A stretch of DNA of 22,387 nt from a virus (lineage: Duplodnaviria > Heunggongvirae > Uroviricota > Caudoviricetes). Positions 3,205 through 9,023 of the stretch are shown here, one piece after another. The position numbers and the translations under genes are program-made. Positions within the stretch are counted from its first letter, which is position 1. Every line of letters begins with the position of its first letter. The stretch is from positions 1 through 22,387 of IMG/VR virus record IMGVR_UViG_2698536657_000021. The stretch is one strand, 5' to 3'. The notes under the pieces are model-generated. The model saw only the letters and a program-made list of their open reading frames with translations. It ran no database searches and had not been told where the DNA came from.

Positions 3205-3236
3205 ATTCATATAAAAGCCCCTCCGGAGAGGGGCTA
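3205..3236 (-). terminator. GC-rich hairpin terminator, possibly bidirectional
   Basis: 8-bp perfect stem AGCCCCTC (3216-3223) / GAGGGGCT (3228-3235), loop CGGA. The minus strand has TTTTAT after the stem; the plus strand has only AAAG, so termination of the 2846..3181 gene would lack a U-run. Confidence 0.45.
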
Positions 3237-3482
3237 AAGCCGCGTATCTGTATCATCATGCGCATGATGCCGGGTGCCTCCCGGTGAGTTCAGCCCGGTG
3301 CCACCAAACCAGCGCGTTTACTTTCCTGGGTATCAAAGATAACACCTAATGCACCAGTCGCCCCTCCGCTCAGGGGGATTCACCATGCCTGTTTCTTTTA
3401 ACAAACTCCCCGCAAAACAGACAACTGTCAACCGTCTGAATTGTGAGACATTTAAAATTTTCGGGGCATGACTGATACCCGG

Positions 3483-3647
3483 CTAACTACCTGGCATGTC
3501 CTTTTTCACCAAAGGAAAAAGCACCACCACAATACCGACCACCAGCACTCCATCCGCCAGCACCGACATGATCCTGCTGGTGAAATCCACCATCACCACC
3601 AGAAACAGCAGGAGTGCCACAGCGGCCAGACGCAGTTTTACCGTCAC
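3483..3647 (-). CDS. small membrane peptide, 54 aa, two hydrophobic segments, translationally coupled to the upstream TerB-like gene
   Basis: Not in the ORF track (GTG start). GTG at 3647-3645 overlaps the TerB-like stop TGA (3646-3644) as GTGA; SD GGAGA 7 nt upstream; translation VTVKLRLAAVALLLFLVVMVDFTSRIMSVLADGVLVVGIVVVLFPLVKKDMPGS; stop TAG at 3485-3483. Confidence 0.4.
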   Translation of the reverse strand: MTVKLRLAAVALLLFLVVMVDFTSRIMSVLADGVLVVGIVVVLFPLVKKDMPGS

Positions 3648-4075
3648 AGGTGGTTCTCCAGTCGCAGGCCAAGAACACCAGCAATCTCTTCCAGAACCTT
3701 ACGCTCTTCCGGCTCAATTTCACCATCTGCTTCAGCAATAGCCACCGCCACATCCAGCACATCTTCCGCTTCACGCGTATCGTGTTTCACATCTTCAATT
3801 TCACGCAACGCCGCTCGACGACCAATTTTAAAGTTGGTGTCAAGCTGACCTGTGATCGTGGCACTGATGGCATTAATTTCTGACGTAAACGCGGACAACG
3901 CAGGCTGGTTACGTAATACCTGTTCGATCTTCGCTTTCTCTGAAGCCTCACATTCACCATCTGCATAGGCTACCAGGTAGGCAGCATTAATAACCGCCTG
4001 TGCCAGATCGCGTTTCTCAAACTTTTTAATTTCCGTTGCTGCTCTGCGGGTTTTCTTTTTGAAAATACCAAACAT
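3644..4075 (-). CDS. TerB-like (tellurite-resistance TerB domain) protein, 143 aa
   Basis: ATG at 4075-4073 with SD AAGGAA 8 nt upstream (the track's 4147 start is GTG with a poor N-terminal extension). Two-repeat architecture with YADGECEASEKAKIEQVL and AEADGEIEPEERKVLEEIAGVLGL, resembling the TerB ADG-x-E/D repeat fold. Confidence 0.65.
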   Translation of the reverse strand: MFGIFKKKTRRAATEIKKFEKRDLAQAVINAAYLVAYADGECEASEKAKIEQVLRNQPALSAFTSEINAISATITGQLDTNFKIGRRAALREIEDVKHDTREAEDVLDVAVAIAEADGEIEPEERKVLEEIAGVLGLRLENHL

Positions 4076-4204
4076 CGTGACGTTCCTTTGGGTGGGTGAG
4101 CCAACGCCCGGGAGCGATCTGCCCACAGAGAAAGTCACACTGACCACTCCGTAAGCTCACCCCCGAAAGGCTCTGTGGTTGATATGCGCCGGGCGTGGCG
4201 CGGA

Positions 4205-4230
4205 TACAAAAAAGGCCGCCAATAGCGACC
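4205..4230 (-). terminator. intrinsic terminator after the 69-aa ORF
   Basis: On the minus strand: GGUCGC-UAUUG-GCGGCC hairpin (6 bp including one G-U) followed by UUUUUUGUAU. Shares the core GATACAAAAAAGGCC with the terminator at 4802..4827. Confidence 0.5.
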
Positions 4231-4264
4231 TCAGTTACGGGATTATTCTGGGGTTAAACGACTG

Positions 4265-4474
4265 TTACTCCCCCCAGACAAAATCATCACTTCCTGTTCG
4301 ATGCGAGCCATAGTGAACCTCGTACTTATCTCCCGTCTTTCTTGCTTCCGTTTCTGCGTCTTCCTCTGTCGCAAAAACCCCAACAAGATGCCAGGGCGAG
4401 CTTCTTACCACAGCCCAACCTTTAACCCATCCTTTGTTGTCCTTATCTTCCATTAACACTTCAGAAACAAACAT
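4265..4474 (-). CDS. hypothetical small protein, 69 aa
   Basis: ATG at 4474 with SD GGAGA and a 5-nt spacer; track ORF; Trp-rich (MFVSEVLMEDKDNKGWVKGWAVV...). No family recognised. Confidence 0.5.
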   Translation of the reverse strand: MFVSEVLMEDKDNKGWVKGWAVVRSSPWHLVGVFATEEDAETEARKTGDKYEVHYGSHRTGSDDFVWGE

Positions 4475-4526
4475 ATTTATCTCCTTGTGGGTACCCAGAG
4501 ATATTTTATGATTGCTCCCGGTCAGA

Positions 4527-4751
4527 TCAATAAAGTGGCTTCAATTTTGCCTTAATGATCAAATCAGGGTGATTGACGGAATCGTACACCACCTCAATAT
4601 TTTCATCCGTGGCGTCGATAAGATATTCTTTTACATAAGGACCTGTTGATTTTCCATGAAATACATCTTCAACAAGTACACTCTCCCCCTGAACAACACG
4701 AAAACTAACTTCTGTTTCGAACGGACCAATCGTCACCATCAGTTTTTTCAC
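4527..4751 (-). CDS. hypothetical small protein, 74 aa
   Basis: GTG at 4751-4749 preceded by AGGAGG with a 4-nt spacer; track ORF (VKKLMVTIGPFETEVSF...). No family recognised. Confidence 0.5.
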   Translation of the reverse strand: MKKLMVTIGPFETEVSFRVVQGESVLVEDVFHGKSTGPYVKEYLIDATDENIEVVYDSVNHPDLIIKAKLKPLY

Positions 4752-4801: not shown

Positions 4802-4827
4802 ACAAAAAAGGCCCGCAAAAGCGAGCC
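4802..4827 (-). terminator. intrinsic terminator after the tRNA cluster
   Basis: On the minus strand: GGCUCGC-UUUU-GCGGGCC hairpin (7 bp, one mismatch) followed by UUUUUUGUA. Confidence 0.5.
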
Positions 4828-4840
4828 AGAAAAATAAGTA

Positions 4841-4917
4841 TGGCGCGTTGTACTGGATTCGAACCAGTGACCGATTGCTTAGAAGGCAATTGCTCTGTCC
4901 GGCTGAGCTAACAACGC
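4841..4917 (-). tRNA. argO: tRNA-Arg (anticodon UCU)
   Basis: Manual cloverleaf fold of the reverse complement: perfect 7-bp acceptor stem GCGTTGT/ACAACGC, D-stem GCTC/GAGC, anticodon loop CTTCTAA, T-arm ACTGG-TTCGAAT-CCAGT, discriminator G, 3' CCA. Confidence 0.85.
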
Positions 4918-4930
4918 TGAATACCGATAA

Positions 4931-5007
4931 TGGACCGCCATCGAGGACTCGAACCCCGCGCAGCCAGCTTCGAAGGCTGACGCTCTGTCCCGATGAGCTA
5001 ATGGCGG
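4931..5007 (-). tRNA. argN: tRNA-Arg (anticodon UCG)
   Basis: Manual fold: acceptor CCGCCAT/ATGGCGG, D-stem GCTC/GAGC, anticodon loop CTTCGAA, T-loop TTCGAGT, 3' CCA. Confidence 0.8.
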
Positions 5008-5016
5008 TATGTGATA

Positions 5017-5092
5017 TGGTGGCCCTTGCTGGATTTGAACCAGCGACCTGGCGATTATGAGTCGCTCGCTCTCACCACTGAGCTAAAGGGCC
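5017..5092 (-). tRNA. ileZ: tRNA with CAU anticodon, ileX/ileZ-like (lysidine tRNA-Ile2 type), 76 nt
   Basis: Reverse complement GGCCCTTTAGCTCAGTGGTGAGAGCGAGCGACTCATAATCGCCAGGTCGCTGGTTCAAATCCAGCAAGGGCCACCA closely resembles E. coli ileX; anticodon loop CTCATAA. The Ile versus Met call is by that similarity only. Confidence 0.8.
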
Positions 5093-5132: not shown

Positions 5133-6191
5133 TCATCCGTTCTGACTGGCTAAATCCTGAACTTCCCTGACCGTCTGCTCAAAACGTTCAGTCTCCAGCT
5201 CAACGCCAGTTGCACGACGCCCCAGCGCCATCGCTGCTTTGACTGTCGAACCCGACCCCATGAAAAAATCTGCAACCAGGTCCCCCGGACGACTGCTCGC
5301 GCTGATTATCTGCTGCAGCATTTCTGCCGGTTTTTCGCACGGATGTTTCCCGGGATAGTACTGCACCGGTTTATGCGTCCACACATCGGTGTACGGCACC
5401 TGCGCCGTCACGCCAAAATACCGCCGCAGATGCTTATATTCACTCTGCAGTTCCGCATACTGCCGGTTCAGTGAAGTATACGTCTCCAGCAGCTGGTGGT
5501 GGGGCTTTTCCAGTACACCGCGCTGATGCTTCTCTTCTGCCACCCGGGCAAACAGCGACTGTAATTTCAGATAATCGCTTTCGTTCGGTAGCTGCCACTG
5601 ACTGGCACTGAACCAGTGCGACACCATGTTTTTCTTTCCTGTGGCATCCACTATCTGTTTTGCCGTTATCCCCAGGGCAGCACGCGCATCACGAAAGTAA
5701 GCAATCAGCGGAGCCATCACATGCTGTTTCAGTGCCCTGCCCTTCGCCTCATACCCGGCATCTTTCGGACGATACGGCCCCTGATAATGTTCCGCGAACA
5801 GAATGCGCTCTGTGGCGGGGAAATACGCCCGCAGGCTTTCCTTGTTGCACCCGTTCCAGCGTCCGGACGGCTTTGCCCAGATGATATGGTTCAGCACACT
5901 GAAGCGTTCACGCATCATGATTTCAATGTCAGACGCCAGGCGATGACCACAGAACAGGTAAAGACTTCCGGCAGGTTTCAGCACCCGCCAGAACTGCGCA
6001 AGACACTGGTCCAGCCATTTCAGGTAATCCTCATCCCCCGTCCACTGGTTATCCCAGCCCTCGGGCTTCACTTTAAAGTATGGCGGGTCTGTGACTATCA
6101 GATCGACAGAGTTTTCCGGTAAGGTCTGGATAAATTCCAGGCAATCAGCGTTGATTAGCTCACAACTGGATATTTTTACAGTATTAGCCAT
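5133..6191 (-). CDS. DNA methyltransferase, N6-adenine/N4-cytosine family (DPPY then FxGxG motif order), no cognate nuclease nearby
   Basis: 352-aa track ORF, ATG at 6191. Catalytic motif IV DPPY (LIVTDPPYF) near the N-terminus and AdoMet motif I DFFMGSGST near the C-terminus. Confidence 0.85.
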   Translation of the reverse strand: MANTVKISSCELINADCLEFIQTLPENSVDLIVTDPPYFKVKPEGWDNQWTGDEDYLKWLDQCLAQFWRVLKPAGSLYLFCGHRLASDIEIMMRERFSVLNHIIWAKPSGRWNGCNKESLRAYFPATERILFAEHYQGPYRPKDAGYEAKGRALKQHVMAPLIAYFRDARAALGITAKQIVDATGKKNMVSHWFSASQWQLPNESDYLKLQSLFARVAEEKHQRGVLEKPHHQLLETYTSLNRQYAELQSEYKHLRRYFGVTAQVPYTDVWTHKPVQYYPGKHPCEKPAEMLQQIISASSRPGDLVADFFMGSGSTVKAAMALGRRATGVELETERFEQTVREVQDLASQNG

Positions 6192-6330
6192 AGATCAATA
6201 AGCACTTCTCTGATAGGCTCATTCTGCTTTTGCGCAAAGCAGTGGGCCTGAGGTTTGCTTGTGATCCGGACGCATGAGCAGATGGCTGGTGAGTGCCCCT
6301 AACACCCACCAGCCGCCCATTTACCACAAA

Positions 6331-6355
6331 TAAAAAAGCCTTCAGGACTGAAGGC
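6331..6355 (-). terminator. intrinsic terminator overlapping the stop codon of the small HTH gene
   Basis: Perfect 7-bp stem GCCTTCA (6338-6344) / TGAAGGC (6349-6355), loop GGAC; on the minus strand it is followed by UUUUUUAUUUG. Confidence 0.45.
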
Positions 6356-6539
6356 GTCTGTAACAACCGAACTGATAGTCTGCCAGACCCGCCATAACAA
6401 GCTGGGTCAGTATTAACTGACAGCGTTCGCGTGAAAGGTACGTATTCTGCGCAATCTCCCCGACTGTCGCCGGTTCGGTGACGCTTAATTCATTAAACAC
6501 CACTCTGGCGGTTTCGGTCATATCCTGCTGTTTCAGCAT
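6342..6539 (-). CDS. hypothetical small winged-helix/HTH-like protein, 65 aa
   Basis: First ATG in the track ORF 6342..6620 (whose listed start is GTG and would run into the tR' hairpin). Translation MLKQQDMTETARVVFNELSVTEPATVGEIAQNTYLSRERCQLILTQLVMAGLADY...; HTH-like segment GEIAQNTYLSRERCQLILTQL. Confidence 0.4.
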   Translation of the reverse strand: MLKQQDMTETARVVFNELSVTEPATVGEIAQNTYLSRERCQLILTQLVMAGLADYQFGCYRRLQS

Positions 6540-6660
6540 GTCTTTTTCCCTTTTCCGGTTAACGTGACACACCAATAACTCTTGTCGAAAAAGCCAGCAA
6601 GCTGAAAGACCGGTATTCACCGCCGCCAGCGCGTTTACTGTACTGGAGTGATTTCAGTCA

Positions 6661-6685
6661 TAAAAAAACCCGCCTGGCGACGGGT
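6661..6685 (-). terminator. tR'-like terminator of a short pR' leader transcript (lambda 6S RNA analog)
   Basis: On the minus strand: ACCCG...CGGGU hairpin followed by seven U residues, about 60 nt downstream of the putative late promoter just after Q. Confidence 0.5.
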
Positions 6686-6732
6686 GTAAAAAGTCTTCTA
6701 ACGTCAGGCATAAAACGCCCATCGTTAGGGCA

Positions 6733-6760
6733 AATTTACCACAGATTCCGGAAAAATCAA
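6733..6760 (-). promoter_or_regulatory. putative late promoter pR' (qut region) immediately downstream of Q
   Basis: On the minus strand: -35 TTGATT (6760-6755), 16-nt spacer, -10 TAAATT (6738-6733); located between the Q stop (6766) and the tR' hairpin. Confidence 0.35.
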
Positions 6761-6765
6761 CCTTG

Positions 6766-7587
6766 TTACCTGGTTACCTTTTTTAACTGCCTCTCAGCCC
6801 ATGCTTCCTCAATATCAAACTTGCTCACCAGCGCATCATAGAATTTCTTAACTGTTTTTTCCCATGACGCGCGTGTTATCTGGTTTGTCACCTCGCATAT
6901 AGCATTAAATGCCTCTGTTGACGGCAATCTTTCATAGCCACGACCACCACAACGCTGGCAGTCCCTGATAACAGGCATACCCCGTTTTTCAGACTCTTCA
7001 CGATGAATGGCAACACCGCGCCCACGACAATCTTTACAGGCGGTGGAAACCTCCCCCTTTCCGCCACACTCCGGACAGGCAACTTTTACCACCTCCCTGA
7101 CTTTTTTCCATTCCTCCCAGTAAGACGGATACACGCCTTTTGTGCACTTTGCCCACACTGGCGGCTTACCATCCGGATACTGGATCTTGTTTGTAAAAAC
7201 CTCGCTTTCAATAAATTTTTTTCCATGACAACAGGAGCACTGTTTTTTGCTCGCCGCGCTACGGGCATAATCTTCAAACGCATACGAAGCCATAATACGC
7301 ATCACTGCCGGTTTTATTTCTGCCGGGAGTTTTCTTAACGCCGCCACGCAATCACACCGACTGAGTGCATATTCTGTCAGCAATTCTGTTGCCCGTTCTC
7401 TGTCATTCATACTAATGCCCATTTTCCCAAGGAACGCAGAAAACCCCATCTCAGCCCGATTCTGTGTCATGCCCTGCGCGGCCATCACATCAGTGATACT
7501 CAGCGCATCTTTCGACGTTGAGGCCGATGCATCAGTCAGGCCGGGGGATTTTGGGGAGTAGTATTTCGGTAAATCTTCCAGTTTCAT
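6766..7587 (-). CDS. Q: late-gene antiterminator Q (QuuQ/YdfT-like, 273 aa, with CxxCxGxG zinc-finger repeats)
   Basis: Track ORF; ATG at 7587 overlaps the rusA stop as ATGA. Cys motifs CPECGGKG, CKDCRGRG, CQRCGGRG. Synteny DUF968 - rusA - Q - pR'/tR' is typical of lambdoid phages. Confidence 0.8.
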   Translation of the reverse strand: MKLEDLPKYYSPKSPGLTDASASTSKDALSITDVMAAQGMTQNRAEMGFSAFLGKMGISMNDRERATELLTEYALSRCDCVAALRKLPAEIKPAVMRIMASYAFEDYARSAASKKQCSCCHGKKFIESEVFTNKIQYPDGKPPVWAKCTKGVYPSYWEEWKKVREVVKVACPECGGKGEVSTACKDCRGRGVAIHREESEKRGMPVIRDCQRCGGRGYERLPSTEAFNAICEVTNQITRASWEKTVKKFYDALVSKFDIEEAWAERQLKKVTR

Positions 7588-7964
7588 TTTTTGACCTGCC
7601 CTTCAAGCATTATGGGGTAAATCTTCACCCCCAGCCGTCCACCAGATACTGGCTTGCCACGTACAATATTGATTTCATCAAACTGCTCGTCATCAATAAG
7701 CACTCCCGCATGCGTCAGCGCATCCAGCGGTGCTTTCAGAATATTGTCCAGGTCACGACGACGCTTATCCGGTGGCTCTGCAATAATTTTTATTGCCAGC
7801 CGTCCGGACAGGCTTAATTTCAGCCGCTGCTGGCGAACAATAAGCGCCACTGCCCGGCGATAGCGCTTTCCCTCCTCCGATATAAAATATGTGCTGCCAC
7901 GGCGTCGCCAGTAAGTGTTCACCGTCGGCGGGTAAGGCAAAACAAATTCTATGCGCTCGGTCAT
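7584..7964 (-). CDS. rusA: Holliday-junction resolvase RusA
   Basis: Track ORF, 126 aa. LPYPPTVNTYW and DKRRRDLDNILKAPLDALTHAGVLIDDEQ match the RusA conserved blocks (compare K-12 RusA LPWPPSNNRYY and [22 protein letters not shown]). Confidence 0.9.
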   Translation of the reverse strand: MTERIEFVLPYPPTVNTYWRRRGSTYFISEEGKRYRRAVALIVRQQRLKLSLSGRLAIKIIAEPPDKRRRDLDNILKAPLDALTHAGVLIDDEQFDEINIVRGKPVSGGRLGVKIYPIMLEGQVKK

Positions 7965-9023
7965 TTATGCTTTCCACTTCAGAACACCCGAATTTCTCGC
8001 GTGCATTAAAAAACGAATCAGCAACAACAGCTGACTGCCGTGTTTCTCTTCAAAATCTTTTACCCCGGCGTGTAGTTCGTTATGGCATTTACGGCATAAC
8101 GGAATAACAAACAAATCGTCAGCCTTTGTTCCCATACCTCCCAGTCCATGACCAATGATGTGATGCGGATCATCTGCCTGATTGCCACACGTCATGCATT
8201 TCTGCGTTTTTACCCAGCGCGTGTATACAGGCATCTCTTCCCGTTGTGGTTTCTGGCGCTGGAGGTACTGAGCCGGAGACTCCGGATCAACGGCGATGCT
8301 TACTAACGTCTTTTCCTGGGGGGGATTTTGTTGCTGGTGGACGTGAAGTGGCAGCGCAATATTTTTTGTGCGCTGCTTCAGTATGCTGGTGGCGGCCTGC
8401 TCTCCCGGTATGATGTCGCTCTCACGGTATACGGAGCGGATTTTTTCCGCTGGTAATCCCAGCGAACGACGCACTACTGCCTCAGGTAGTGCATCCACCA
8501 CCTGATTGCAGACCGCCCACCAGGATAATTCGGCCAGCGATAACTCCCTCTCCTGCGTACTGCTTATTGCGTGACGGATGACGTCAATCATCCAGGCAAC
8601 CAGATTCTGCTGAGCAAGTTGATCGAGTGATTCTGATGTCTGGTCGCGCAGCTGGTTGTCACAGTGCCAGCACAACACCATCGCGCCGGTACCGTAACGG
8701 TGAATGACGGTTTCGCTGTGATGATAATCACCGTGTGGCCACTGGCAGGATTTCACGTGACGTAATAACCAGTCAGACAGTGCACCTGCACCACCTGCTG
8801 CACGAATAACCCGCTCATCGCTGAAAAATGGCAGTAATGTTTTATCCTCTGCCAGCGGCTGGCGAACGGCAGGAACGACTCCGGACGGCAGACCGCGCAT
8901 GTTTTTCGGTTCCGGTTCCACCAATATTCTGCCGTTATGGAATGCTGACATTGATTCACGGCCCGGCTTAAGGAGCACCATCCCGAGTTCCGGTACCAGA
9001 ACAGGTCGAAGTAATACCCGCAC
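7965..9023 (-). CDS. DUF968 (YdfU-like) protein with C-terminal HNH-like Cys/His motif
   Basis: Track ORF, 352 aa. GTG start at 9023 immediately follows the upstream stop and a GGAGG SD. C-terminal CMTCGNQADDPHHIIGHGLGG...CRKCHNELHAG. Sits upstream of rusA as ydfU does in Qin. Confidence 0.75.
   Translation of the reverse strand: MRVLLRPVLVPELGMVLLKPGRESMSAFHNGRILVEPEPKNMRGLPSGVVPAVRQPLAEDKTLLPFFSDERVIRAAGGAGALSDWLLRHVKSCQWPHGDYHHSETVIHRYGTGAMVLCWHCDNQLRDQTSESLDQLAQQNLVAWMIDVIRHAISSTQERELSLAELSWWAVCNQVVDALPEAVVRRSLGLPAEKIRSVYRESDIIPGEQAATSILKQRTKNIALPLHVHQQQNPPQEKTLVSIAVDPESPAQYLQRQKPQREEMPVYTRWVKTQKCMTCGNQADDPHHIIGHGLGGMGTKADDLFVIPLCRKCHNELHAGVKDFEEKHGSQLLLLIRFLMHARNSGVLKWKA

Follow-up and report, generated by a model that had tools for sequence, protein, structure and literature searches.

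A conserved leader RNA in front of an M.EcoGII-family methyltransferase gene in a late-operon cassette of lambdoid prophages

In phage Mu, the start of the toxic DNA-modification gene mom is locked in a hairpin that is opened by the zinc-finger translational activator Com. A closer relative of the system considered here is M.EcoGII, a prophage-borne enzyme that methylates adenine in any sequence context without a recognition motif, that alone also methylates RNA, that is not expressed in the lysogen, and that harms the cell when it is made constitutively (PMC5778455). Murray et al. (2018) proposed that M.EcoGII is switched on at prophage excision, protection of progeny DNA has already been proposed for an enzyme of this type, and the enzyme of phage 1720a-02 was named as very similar to it (PMC5778455). 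In the methylomes of Escherichia coli strains that make Shiga toxin (Stx), abbreviated STEC, homologues 92 to 94% similar to M.EcoGI and M.EcoGII are listed as predicted nonspecific, with no extra methylated motif detected in lysogens (PMC6602927), and M.EcoGII has been characterized and engineered versions of it were later developed as research tools (PMC11551740). Here, we describe a gene cassette that carries a methyltransferase of this family in a 22.4-kilobase (kb) stretch of viral DNA, positions 1 to 22,387 of IMG/VR record IMGVR_UViG_2698536657_000021, which as a whole is referred to as the window.

Our best reading of the cassette, to which we give a probability of roughly 0.7, is that it encodes a toxic, promiscuous anti-restriction methyltransferase that is held off by Q-gated terminators together with a structured translational leader. 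The enzyme is a known one in a known kind of location, and what the locus adds is the conserved structured leader of ~137 nucleotides (nt), which was overlooked in an earlier note made on this DNA from its sequence alone and which is probably the main cis-control on the methyltransferase. Such a leader may explain how cells tolerate the gene for a promiscuous methyltransferase, and it would allow the translational control of an anti-restriction function in phages to be tested directly. All features of the cassette lie on the minus strand of the window, and its architecture consists of the terminator T1, an optional winged-helix gene, the hairpin T2, the leader, and the methyltransferase gene, downstream of a late promoter:

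6721–6760 (−), lambda-like late promoter pR′, from an alignment with lambda (NC_001416)
6661–6685 (−), T1, the tR′ intrinsic terminator, from pattern scan and fold
6342–6539 (−), gene for a winged-helix protein of 65 amino acids (aa), function not assigned, from phrog_331, codon bias, and an AlphaFold model
6331–6355 (−), T2, a hairpin followed by six U residues, from pattern scan and fold
6192–6328 (−), leader RNA of the methyltransferase gene, ~137 nt, non-coding, from conservation, linkage, and covariation
5133–6191 (−), M.EcoGII-family beta-class N6-adenine methyltransferase, 352 aa, from Pfam and an M.EcoGII alignment

The leader RNA of the methyltransferase gene

In an alignment of E. 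coli, Salmonella, Klebsiella, and Buttiauxella loci, the spacer between T2 and the methyltransferase ATG is conserved better than either of the genes that flank it. Over 24 loci, mean pairwise identity is 0.81 to 0.94 for the leader, compared with 0.45 to 0.85 for the methyltransferase coding sequence and 0.59 to 0.79 for the winged-helix gene. The leader is followed by the methyltransferase in 151 of 151 testable cases, counted over 48 genome loci and ~100 viral contigs, whether or not the winged-helix gene is present, and in Stx2c phages, which keep the leader without that gene, homology to the window begins at 6322, the leader 5′ edge. Against Rfam 15, nothing reached the gathering score (the best match was P26, 16.6 bits, E 0.9), and a literature search for the leader core GGGCGGCTGGTGGGTG, as DNA, as RNA, and as reverse complement, returned no papers from the library that was searched. 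As a structured RNA, the leader appears not to have been described before.

Several other sources of the conservation were considered and set aside. For a coding function, the two candidate frames, a 60-aa open reading frame (ORF) at 6184–6366 and a 33-codon ORF that starts at 6320, are broken by stop codons or 1-nt insertions and deletions in most lineages, conservation across the leader has no three-base periodicity, and no plus-strand ORF of at least 40 aa runs across it. Against an internal promoter at the 5′ edge stand the final G of the −10-like hexamer, which every lineage has, and the promoter scan, which calls none. For an antisense RNA, a reading of the reverse strand by eye shows the long hairpin followed by just three U residues and −10 candidates that lack the final T. 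The same 5′ edge contains a 10-mer, TGTGGTAAAT (6328–6319, minus strand), that occurs again in the −10 region of pR′ (6743–6734, minus strand), and the leader copy continues into the start AUG of a short ORF that begins MGGWWVL and whose tandem Trp codons are encoded by a Chi site. An AUG or GUG stands at this leader position in nearly all aligned sequences, opening a peptide of 3 to 45 codons without a clear Shine-Dalgarno sequence.

The leader is divided into the following segments, where leader position p corresponds to window coordinate 6341 − p:

6320–6315 (−), segment A
6314–6284 (−), hairpin P2
6306–6313 (−), Chi site GCTGGTGG, which makes up the almost invariant 5′ arm of P2 and lies on the strand that is sense for late transcription
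6282–6274 (−), segment B
6266–6254 (−), segment C
6249–6215 (−), P5/P4 hairpin
6204–6193 (−), segment D, just 5′ of the start codon

Evidence for an RNA structure in the leader comes from its pairing pattern, including that of helix P3, which has the form (U)XGCU : AGCY(A) and is extended by the pair 61:85 (window 6280:6256). Counted over 104 distinct leader sequences, this pair is UA in 44, CG in 33, AU in 21, and UG in 5, and is standard in 103/103. In a covariance-model alignment, P3 has a covariation score of 0.223, compared with 0.056 ± 0.011 in shuffles, and is 92.7% paired, compared with 16 to 40% when the partner columns are slid. A model of the two-hairpin fold described below gives 22 pairs changed on both sides (4.2 ± 1.4 in shuffles) and 96% pairing (25 to 44% when slid), in an alignment that was fitted to the model and where a small number of divergent sequences account for many of the double changes. 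The covariance model also finds diverged leaders in Tatumella (L055), in Enterobacteriaceae (L038), in Pseudocitrobacter (L056, 39 bits), and on a Vibrio plasmid (L065, 30 bits), and in these P2, P4, and P5 are rebuilt with different sequences. A helix C:D over the start region was tried as a covariation-backed pairing and found no support, with position 85 pairing with 137 in 53% of sequences, compared with 100% with 61.

Single-sequence folds of typical leaders are alike, with a long 5′ hairpin (A:B plus P2) and a second domain that joins GGUCAC.AAGC to GCUU..UGAUC, the 12 nt right before the AUG. P3 is incompatible with A:B and with part of the second-domain helix. The RNAalifold consensus is a junction that contains P3, and we therefore read the leader as two competing folds; a switch between them is our hypothesis, in which the occluding helix is one without informative covariation. 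Forcing P3 to form costs ~2 kcal/mol in the leaders of Klebsiella and Buttiauxella and 6 to 12 kcal/mol in those of Salmonella and E. coli, and in three of the four leaders tested the start region then becomes more likely to be unpaired. We put forward tentatively, at somewhat under even odds, that the ~137-nt element is an undescribed class of cis-regulatory RNA for M.EcoGII-family methyltransferases, a bistable RNA in which the P3 fold would free the start and which would have been kept, from Enterobacterales to a Vibrio plasmid, as a safety catch on a toxic DNA and RNA methyltransferase that acts genome-wide. Possible triggers of a switch are a trans-acting factor (the winged-helix protein, a Com-like protein, or feedback by the methyltransferase itself), translation of the MGGWWVL ORF, or a metabolite such as S-adenosylmethionine (SAM). 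In a Trabulsiella locus (L016), a second, partial leader match (28.6 bits, E 4e-5) is found at 2022–2118, ~800 nt upstream of the main copy.

The methyltransferase and its late-operon setting

The 352-aa product of the ORF at 5133–6191 matches the Pfam family N6_N4_Mtase (PF01555) with 150.9 bits (cut-off 26.7) and E 6.5e-44, and it carries DPPY at residues 35–38 and FFMGSGST at residues 309–316, which is the beta-class order, with DPPY N-terminal and FxGxG C-terminal; the earlier note had rightly described it as a DPPY/FxGxG methyltransferase. Solved relatives match the protein in two blocks in the same order. Over its full length, it is identical to M.EcoGII at 324 of 348 residues (~93%), an approximate figure, since the M.EcoGII sequence was machine-read from the supplement of PMC11551740 and a few of the mismatches are probably artefacts, and phage 1720a-02 shares the whole module at 96.5% nucleotide identity. 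The payload of the cassette is an M.EcoGII-family methyltransferase, predicted from this homology to methylate adenine without sequence specificity. Because of the ~93% identity to an enzyme without a motif, no discrete methylation motif is expected, and the earlier note was mistaken in expecting one. No Shine-Dalgarno sequence is visible upstream of the methyltransferase start.

No restriction endonuclease gene adjoins the methyltransferase in the window, where its neighbors are the winged-helix gene, Q, RusA, the transfer RNA (tRNA) genes, small ORFs, and a TerB-like gene, and the gene and Pfam lists of 10 homologous loci, which come from Buttiauxella, Klebsiella, Salmonella, and E. coli, contain none either. 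The enzyme is an orphan, as had been claimed, and the adjacent endonuclease that is the mark of a Type II restriction-modification system, whose discovery in homologous loci the earlier note had named as fatal to its view, is missing from the window and from those 10 loci.

Upstream of the cassette, the Q gene encodes a homologue of lambda Q (32% identity, E 3e-40) with a CxxC-rich insertion. In the 40 nt after the Q stop, the alignment with lambda places TTGATT, a 16-nt spacer, (TG)G-TAAATT, TGCCCT, and then AACGATGGG. The −35 element TTGATT lies at 6760–6755, followed after the spacer by the TG-extended −10 element TAAATT at 6738–6733, and the sigma-dependent pause element AACGAT lies at 6726–6721, with the putative +1 at ~6726. 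Two stretches, GGTAAATTTG and AACGATGGG, are identical to lambda pR′ and cover the −10 region and the AACGAT pause element, and the roles of the pR′ elements are established lambda biology (PMC9388147). The RNA predicted to run from a start near 6726 to the T1 U-run is ~62 to 66 nt long, and it has no Rfam match above threshold, the weak best matches being suhB, anti-hemB, and isrK.

T1 has a 7-base pair (bp) stem (6685–6668), a GCCA loop, and seven U residues (ΔG −12.0 kcal/mol, z −3.2), and since it is the first terminator after a lambda-like pR′, the name tR′ that it had been given is justified. In Salmonella, Klebsiella, Buttiauxella, and Stx2a loci, the winged-helix gene is likewise preceded by an equivalent hairpin, whose sequence changes compensate one another. 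T2 has its stem at 6355–6338 followed by T6 (ΔG −10.5 kcal/mol, z −3.8), and the first three bases of its 3′ arm are the TGA stop codon of the winged-helix gene (6344–6342), just as the earlier note had stated. T2, which together with T1 brackets the gene as had been described, is not simply its terminator: a hairpin of varying sequence is seen by eye at its position in nearly all aligned loci, and it precedes the leader even in the examined loci that lack the gene. These T2-like hairpins, which were judged from alignments since minimum-energy folds added spurious pairs, often have a weaker U-tract outside the E. coli lineage. Farther along the transcript, T3 (stem 4827–4810; ΔG −13.8 kcal/mol, z −5.7), T4 (stem 4232–4212), and T5 (stem 3235–3216) complete the set that had been counted as at least five terminators punctuating the late leader, and the count holds: all five were picked up by the minus-strand pattern scan as G+C-rich hairpins with a U-tract, each with a stem of 7 to 9 bp and 4 to 7 U residues, with ΔG of −10.5 to −17.2 kcal/mol and z of −2.9 to −5.7 relative to shuffles. 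Terminator-like sites in the region number 11, compared with 5.5 ± 2.5 in shuffles.

The placement of the cassette downstream of a lambda-type pR′ and tR′, inside a presumed Q-dependent late transcript, is also as had been described, and the reading preferred here builds on it as follows. In the lysogen, constitutive pR′ would yield just an RNA of ~65 nt ending at T1, T2 would stop read-through of T1, and the structured leader, without a Shine-Dalgarno sequence, would limit translation of stray transcripts and so keep the toxic enzyme off. Upon induction, Q would load at pR′, RNA polymerase would pass T1 through T5, and the methyltransferase would be produced along with the tRNAs and the products of the lysis genes. 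Within the leader, one fold would have two long hairpins, with the 12 nt before the AUG paired, and in the other the covariation-backed P3 would form and the start region would be free, setting the amount of enzyme translated. Replicating phage DNA would become heavily modified with N6-methyladenine (m6A), and progeny might be protected from many m6A-sensitive restriction systems in the next host. Protection of progeny had been suggested in the earlier note as well; the idea agrees with a published hypothesis (PMC5778455) and is, for that reason, not new.

The surroundings of the cassette in transcription order are those of a lambdoid late region:

7965–9023 (−), DUF968 gene, first in transcription order
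7584–7964 (−), rusA, between the DUF968 gene and Q
6766–7587 (−), Q-type late antiterminator, 273 aa (Pfam Antiterm, PF03589, E 4.4e-53)
4841–5092 (−), three tRNA genes with anticodons CAT, TCG (Arg), and TCT (Arg), from tRNA gene calls
4802–4827 (−), T3, intrinsic terminator 3′ of the tRNA cluster, from pattern scan and fold
after T3 (−), two small ORFs, then T4, a TerB-like gene, and an STnc100-like element
4204–4232 (−), T4, intrinsic terminator, from pattern scan and fold
3210–3235 (−), T5, intrinsic terminator that is the 3′ end of the STnc100-like element, from scan and fold
after T5, last in order (−), SASA-type esterase gene, 660 aa

In closely related prophages, stx2AB lies directly 3′ of the tRNA genes, and the window can for this reason be read as the late-leader region of a Stx-type lambdoid prophage without stx. 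Transcription of the stx genes starts at pR′ and is controlled by antitermination (PMC7547250). In the window, the stx2AB slot (3644–4751, minus strand) holds three other genes, encoding a 74-aa ORF (phrog_2571), a 69-aa ORF (phrog_4280), and a 167-aa TerB-like protein (phrog_632, "tellurite resistance"). The first tRNA gene (5017–5092, minus strand) is called as Met (CAT) by ARAGORN, and records of Stx phages and RefSeq annotate the same gene as ileZ (tRNA-Ile). Between the TerB-like gene and the esterase gene, 3205–3417 (minus strand) gives a strong Rfam match to the small RNA family STnc100 (131.5 bits, gathering score 47) that ends at T5.

A total of 294 phage records contain the cassette, and its annotation is found in hundreds of Stx phages. 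In four genera, its place is between a Q gene and the lysis genes, and these Q genes belong to at least four Pfam families. At least part of a 3-kb query matches 3450 of 5426 complete E. coli genomes (~two thirds), and 1064 E. coli genomes match over at least 80% of it. Lambdoid (Stx-type) prophages carry the region in their late operon as a mobile cassette, of a common type and in an ordinary location. In most Stx2a phages, homology to the window begins at 6689, at the foot of T1, and this breakpoint together with that at 6322 indicates that the terminators mark the junctions of exchangeable modules.

The winged-helix protein and rival explanations

The 65-aa ORF, which uses an internal ATG of a 92-aa ORF with a GTG start, had been described as helix-turn-helix (HTH)-like, and it is a real gene. 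Its product matches phrog_331, a family of unknown function (E 1e-37), and has 335 homologous protein clusters, the named ones from Escherichia, Shigella, Salmonella, Klebsiella, Citrobacter, and Buttiauxella. Substitutions are distributed over the codon positions as 647:507:2464, a strong third-position bias, and differing codon pairs are synonymous in 1894 cases and non-synonymous in 913. The AlphaFold model (pLDDT 89) is a minimal winged helix, with helices at 7–16, 26–33, and 37–49 followed by strands at 53–56 and 59–62, i.e., three helices and then a beta-hairpin wing. Foldseek matches with TM 0.7 to 0.8 are to winged-helix domains of IclR, MarR, and methyltransferases, and the structural neighbors also include the winged helices of small-molecule SAM-dependent methyltransferases, the RNA-binding SelB, and Z-alpha; a specific function was sought from these matches and set aside, as they are generic to the winged helix. 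The profile search that had been suggested for this protein succeeded in the case of phrog_331 and gave Pfam HTH families below cut-off, the best being TrmB (18.1 bits, cut-off 25.6, E 2.4e-3), and there was no NCBIfam match. The gene is present in 127 of 149 loci with leader and methyltransferase and absent in the other 22, and so it is dispensable for the cassette. The protein diverges to 37 to 55% identity in some loci, whereas the methyltransferase stays at or above ~61% across all leader loci. We regard the winged-helix protein as an optional accessory that most likely modulates the leader or the enzyme.

Distant homologues of the methyltransferase (54 to 56% identity), from Shewanella, Vibrio, and other gammaproteobacteria, are preceded by ORFs for zinc ribbons like Mu Com. 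Two of these genes (L058 and L062) score above the PF10122 cut-off of 22.9, with 33.6 and 35.6 bits, and those of L059 and L065 are weaker. The ORFs lie ~150 to 200 nt upstream of the methyltransferase start, and that of L059 overlaps it. On the Vibrio plasmid (L065), a leader homologue lies 5′ of the com-like ORF and the methyltransferase is frameshifted, and in Pseudocitrobacter (L056) a distant homologue of the winged-helix gene (hhalign E 1.2e-5) lies 5′ of the diverged leader, whose predicted fold puts the AUG in a local hairpin. The window contains no Com zinc-ribbon gene.

Several observations weigh against the reading of a methyltransferase held off by Q-gated terminators and a translational leader. 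The P3 fold of E. coli-type leaders is ~12 kcal/mol less stable than the minimum-energy fold, and covariation is limited to P3, P2, and P4/P5; for the start-occluding helix, the backing is conservation and thermodynamics, with a few double changes from single, model-fitted divergent sequences. The identity to M.EcoGII is approximate owing to the machine-read reference, and with ~7% of residues differing, a change of specificity could in principle have occurred. We infer the Q-dependence of the cassette from its position, and the statement in the earlier note that every cargo gene is gated by Q is likewise an inference; a weak promoter-like sequence, TTGCTG-17-TATTGG, seen by eye between T1 and the winged-helix gene and not called by the scan, could drive Q-independent expression. 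In three loci (L001, L003, and L023), ~1.6 to 2 kb of reverse-strand genes lie between Q and the cassette, and a simple layout of pR′, tR′, and cassette is therefore not universal.

Two of these places hold further features. In the non-coding region upstream of the winged-helix start (6540–6660, minus strand), the block AC.AGAGTTAT..GT.TGTCA is invariant across four genera and lies 3′ of the promoter-like TTGCTG-17-TATTGG. The reverse-strand inserts, at 1832–3395 in L001, 3053–4662 in L003, and 644–2763 in L023, have two genes each, one of those in L023 being RelA/SpoT-like by eye, and the position may be a variable slot for defense genes.

Two alternatives give the winged-helix protein a central role. 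It could be a regulator of the cassette, either a transcriptional controller like the C proteins of restriction-modification systems or a translational activator like Com that would bind the leader RNA and open its start region, which would suit its nucleic acid-binding fold and the position of its gene immediately upstream of the leader. The Com-like genes (PF10122) occupy the same place before the distant methyltransferases, and both the leader homologue that precedes the com-like ORF in L065 and the pairing of a distant winged-helix homologue with a diverged leader in L056 fit such a role. The leader is, however, equally conserved in the 22 loci without the gene, so that its function cannot depend on a winged-helix gene encoded in cis, and its only long inverted repeat has G-U wobbles and a bulge, as is typical of RNA and not of an operator; we consider the regulator explanation unlikely. 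Alternatively, the protein could be a subunit of the methyltransferase that redirects or restricts its substrate (RNA, ribosomal RNA [rRNA], or particular DNA), the natural holoenzyme then not being a promiscuous DNA methyltransferase. There is a precedent in the MT-A70 methyltransferase of the Stx phage PA8, which requires the upstream-encoded winged-helix protein PNB-2, forms a 1:1 complex with it, and is directed by it to 16S rRNA (PMC10810198), and the action of M.EcoGII alone on RNA (PMC5778455), the adjoining genes in 127 of 149 loci, and the SAM-dependent methyltransferase and SelB winged helices among the closest structural matches would all agree with it. Homology of the 65-aa protein to PNB-1 and PNB-2 was looked for and is not detectable (E 0.15 and 18), and the PA8 enzyme belongs to another family. 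The 22 loci that have leader and methyltransferase without the winged-helix gene, the terminator between the two genes where both are present, and the lower identity of the winged-helix protein (37 to 55% in some loci) relative to the methyltransferase likewise speak against a subunit, which we judge distinctly improbable.

The other two alternatives concern the leader and the enzyme. The leader could be conserved for a function at the DNA level, as a Chi hotspot, as a linker for homologous recombination at a module junction, or as a promoter, and to this explanation we assign little weight. Its most conserved block (0.94 identity) does contain the perfect Chi site, one of 10 in the window (2366, 3539, 5492, 6306, 8333, 8385, 10150, 15205, 18401, and 20398; six on the minus strand), compared with 0.72 ± 0.84 in shuffles; module junctions lie at 6689 and 6322; and the 5′ edge repeats the 10 nt of the pR′ −10 region (TGTGGTAAAT). 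But Chi makes up 8 of the ~137 nt, and the element persists in Rosenbergiella, Tatumella, L056, and L065, where Chi has been lost. The −10-like hexamer is without the conserved final T in every lineage, the scan calls no promoter there, and in L055, L056, and L065 the hairpins P2, P4, and P5 are built from different sequences. The pair 61:85, moreover, covaries through three Watson-Crick types plus U-G, a wobble that works on the sense RNA strand only. Least credible of all is a conventional solitary site-specific methyltransferase, or a restriction-modification remnant, that would serve epigenetic regulation or protect from one cognate enzyme. The best PADLOC match is a Type II methyltransferase model and RefSeq calls some copies "site-specific DNA-methyltransferase," but against these labels stand the ~93% identity to an enzyme that is experimentally non-specific, the STEC homologues predicted nonspecific with no extra methylated motif detected in lysogens (PMC6602927), and the lack of an endonuclease partner in any examined locus.

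Comparison with known systems

M.EcoGII and M.EcoGI, from a prophage of E. coli O104:H4 C227-11 (PMC5778455), resemble the window enzyme in being beta-class with an N-terminal DPPY and a C-terminal FxGxG, prophage-borne, and without a restriction partner. M.EcoGII has 349 aa and the window protein 352 aa, ~24 positions differ, and the activity of the latter is predicted. The published work on M.EcoGII does not describe an upstream winged-helix gene, terminators, or a conserved leader.

The late-promoter region resembles the lambda system of Q, pR′, and tR′ in having a Q homologue, an identical −10 region and AACGAT element, a close terminator, and downstream cargo, which is stx in the relatives. 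The lambda pR′-tR′ (6S) RNA is 194 nt. The short RNA predicted in the window is ~65 nt, compared with 258 nt for StxS (PMC7547250), it does not resemble StxS-type leaders in sequence, and four further terminators follow T1. The M.EcoPA8orf6770P-PNB-2 system of phage PA8 (PMC10810198) is similar in that an adenine methyltransferase of a Stx phage lies by winged-helix genes, with a terminator before the partner-methyltransferase pair; it differs in that the enzyme is of the MT-A70 (DPPW) type, 208 aa long, and encoded in the early-left region, and in that the partners have 143 and 225 aa.

The leader itself recalls attenuation of the ermC type, found in the leaders of rRNA methyltransferases, in its four segments, with A:B plus C:D as the alternative to B:C, in the covering of the start by the last segment, and in the short ORF that begins in A, while the short ORF of the window differs in having no convincing Shine-Dalgarno sequence, a length of 3 to 45 codons, and no known inducer. 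With Mu com-mom, the cassette shares a harmful DNA-modifying enzyme, a structured start, and a gene for a small nucleic acid-binding protein immediately upstream, but the window has a winged helix in place of the zinc ribbon, Mom is no methyltransferase, and translational activation in the window is hypothetical. Taken with the Com-like and winged-helix neighbors of the distant homologues and the AUG hairpin of L056, this likeness makes tight, probably translational, control by a small nucleic acid-binding protein encoded upstream look like a recurring theme in this enzyme family.

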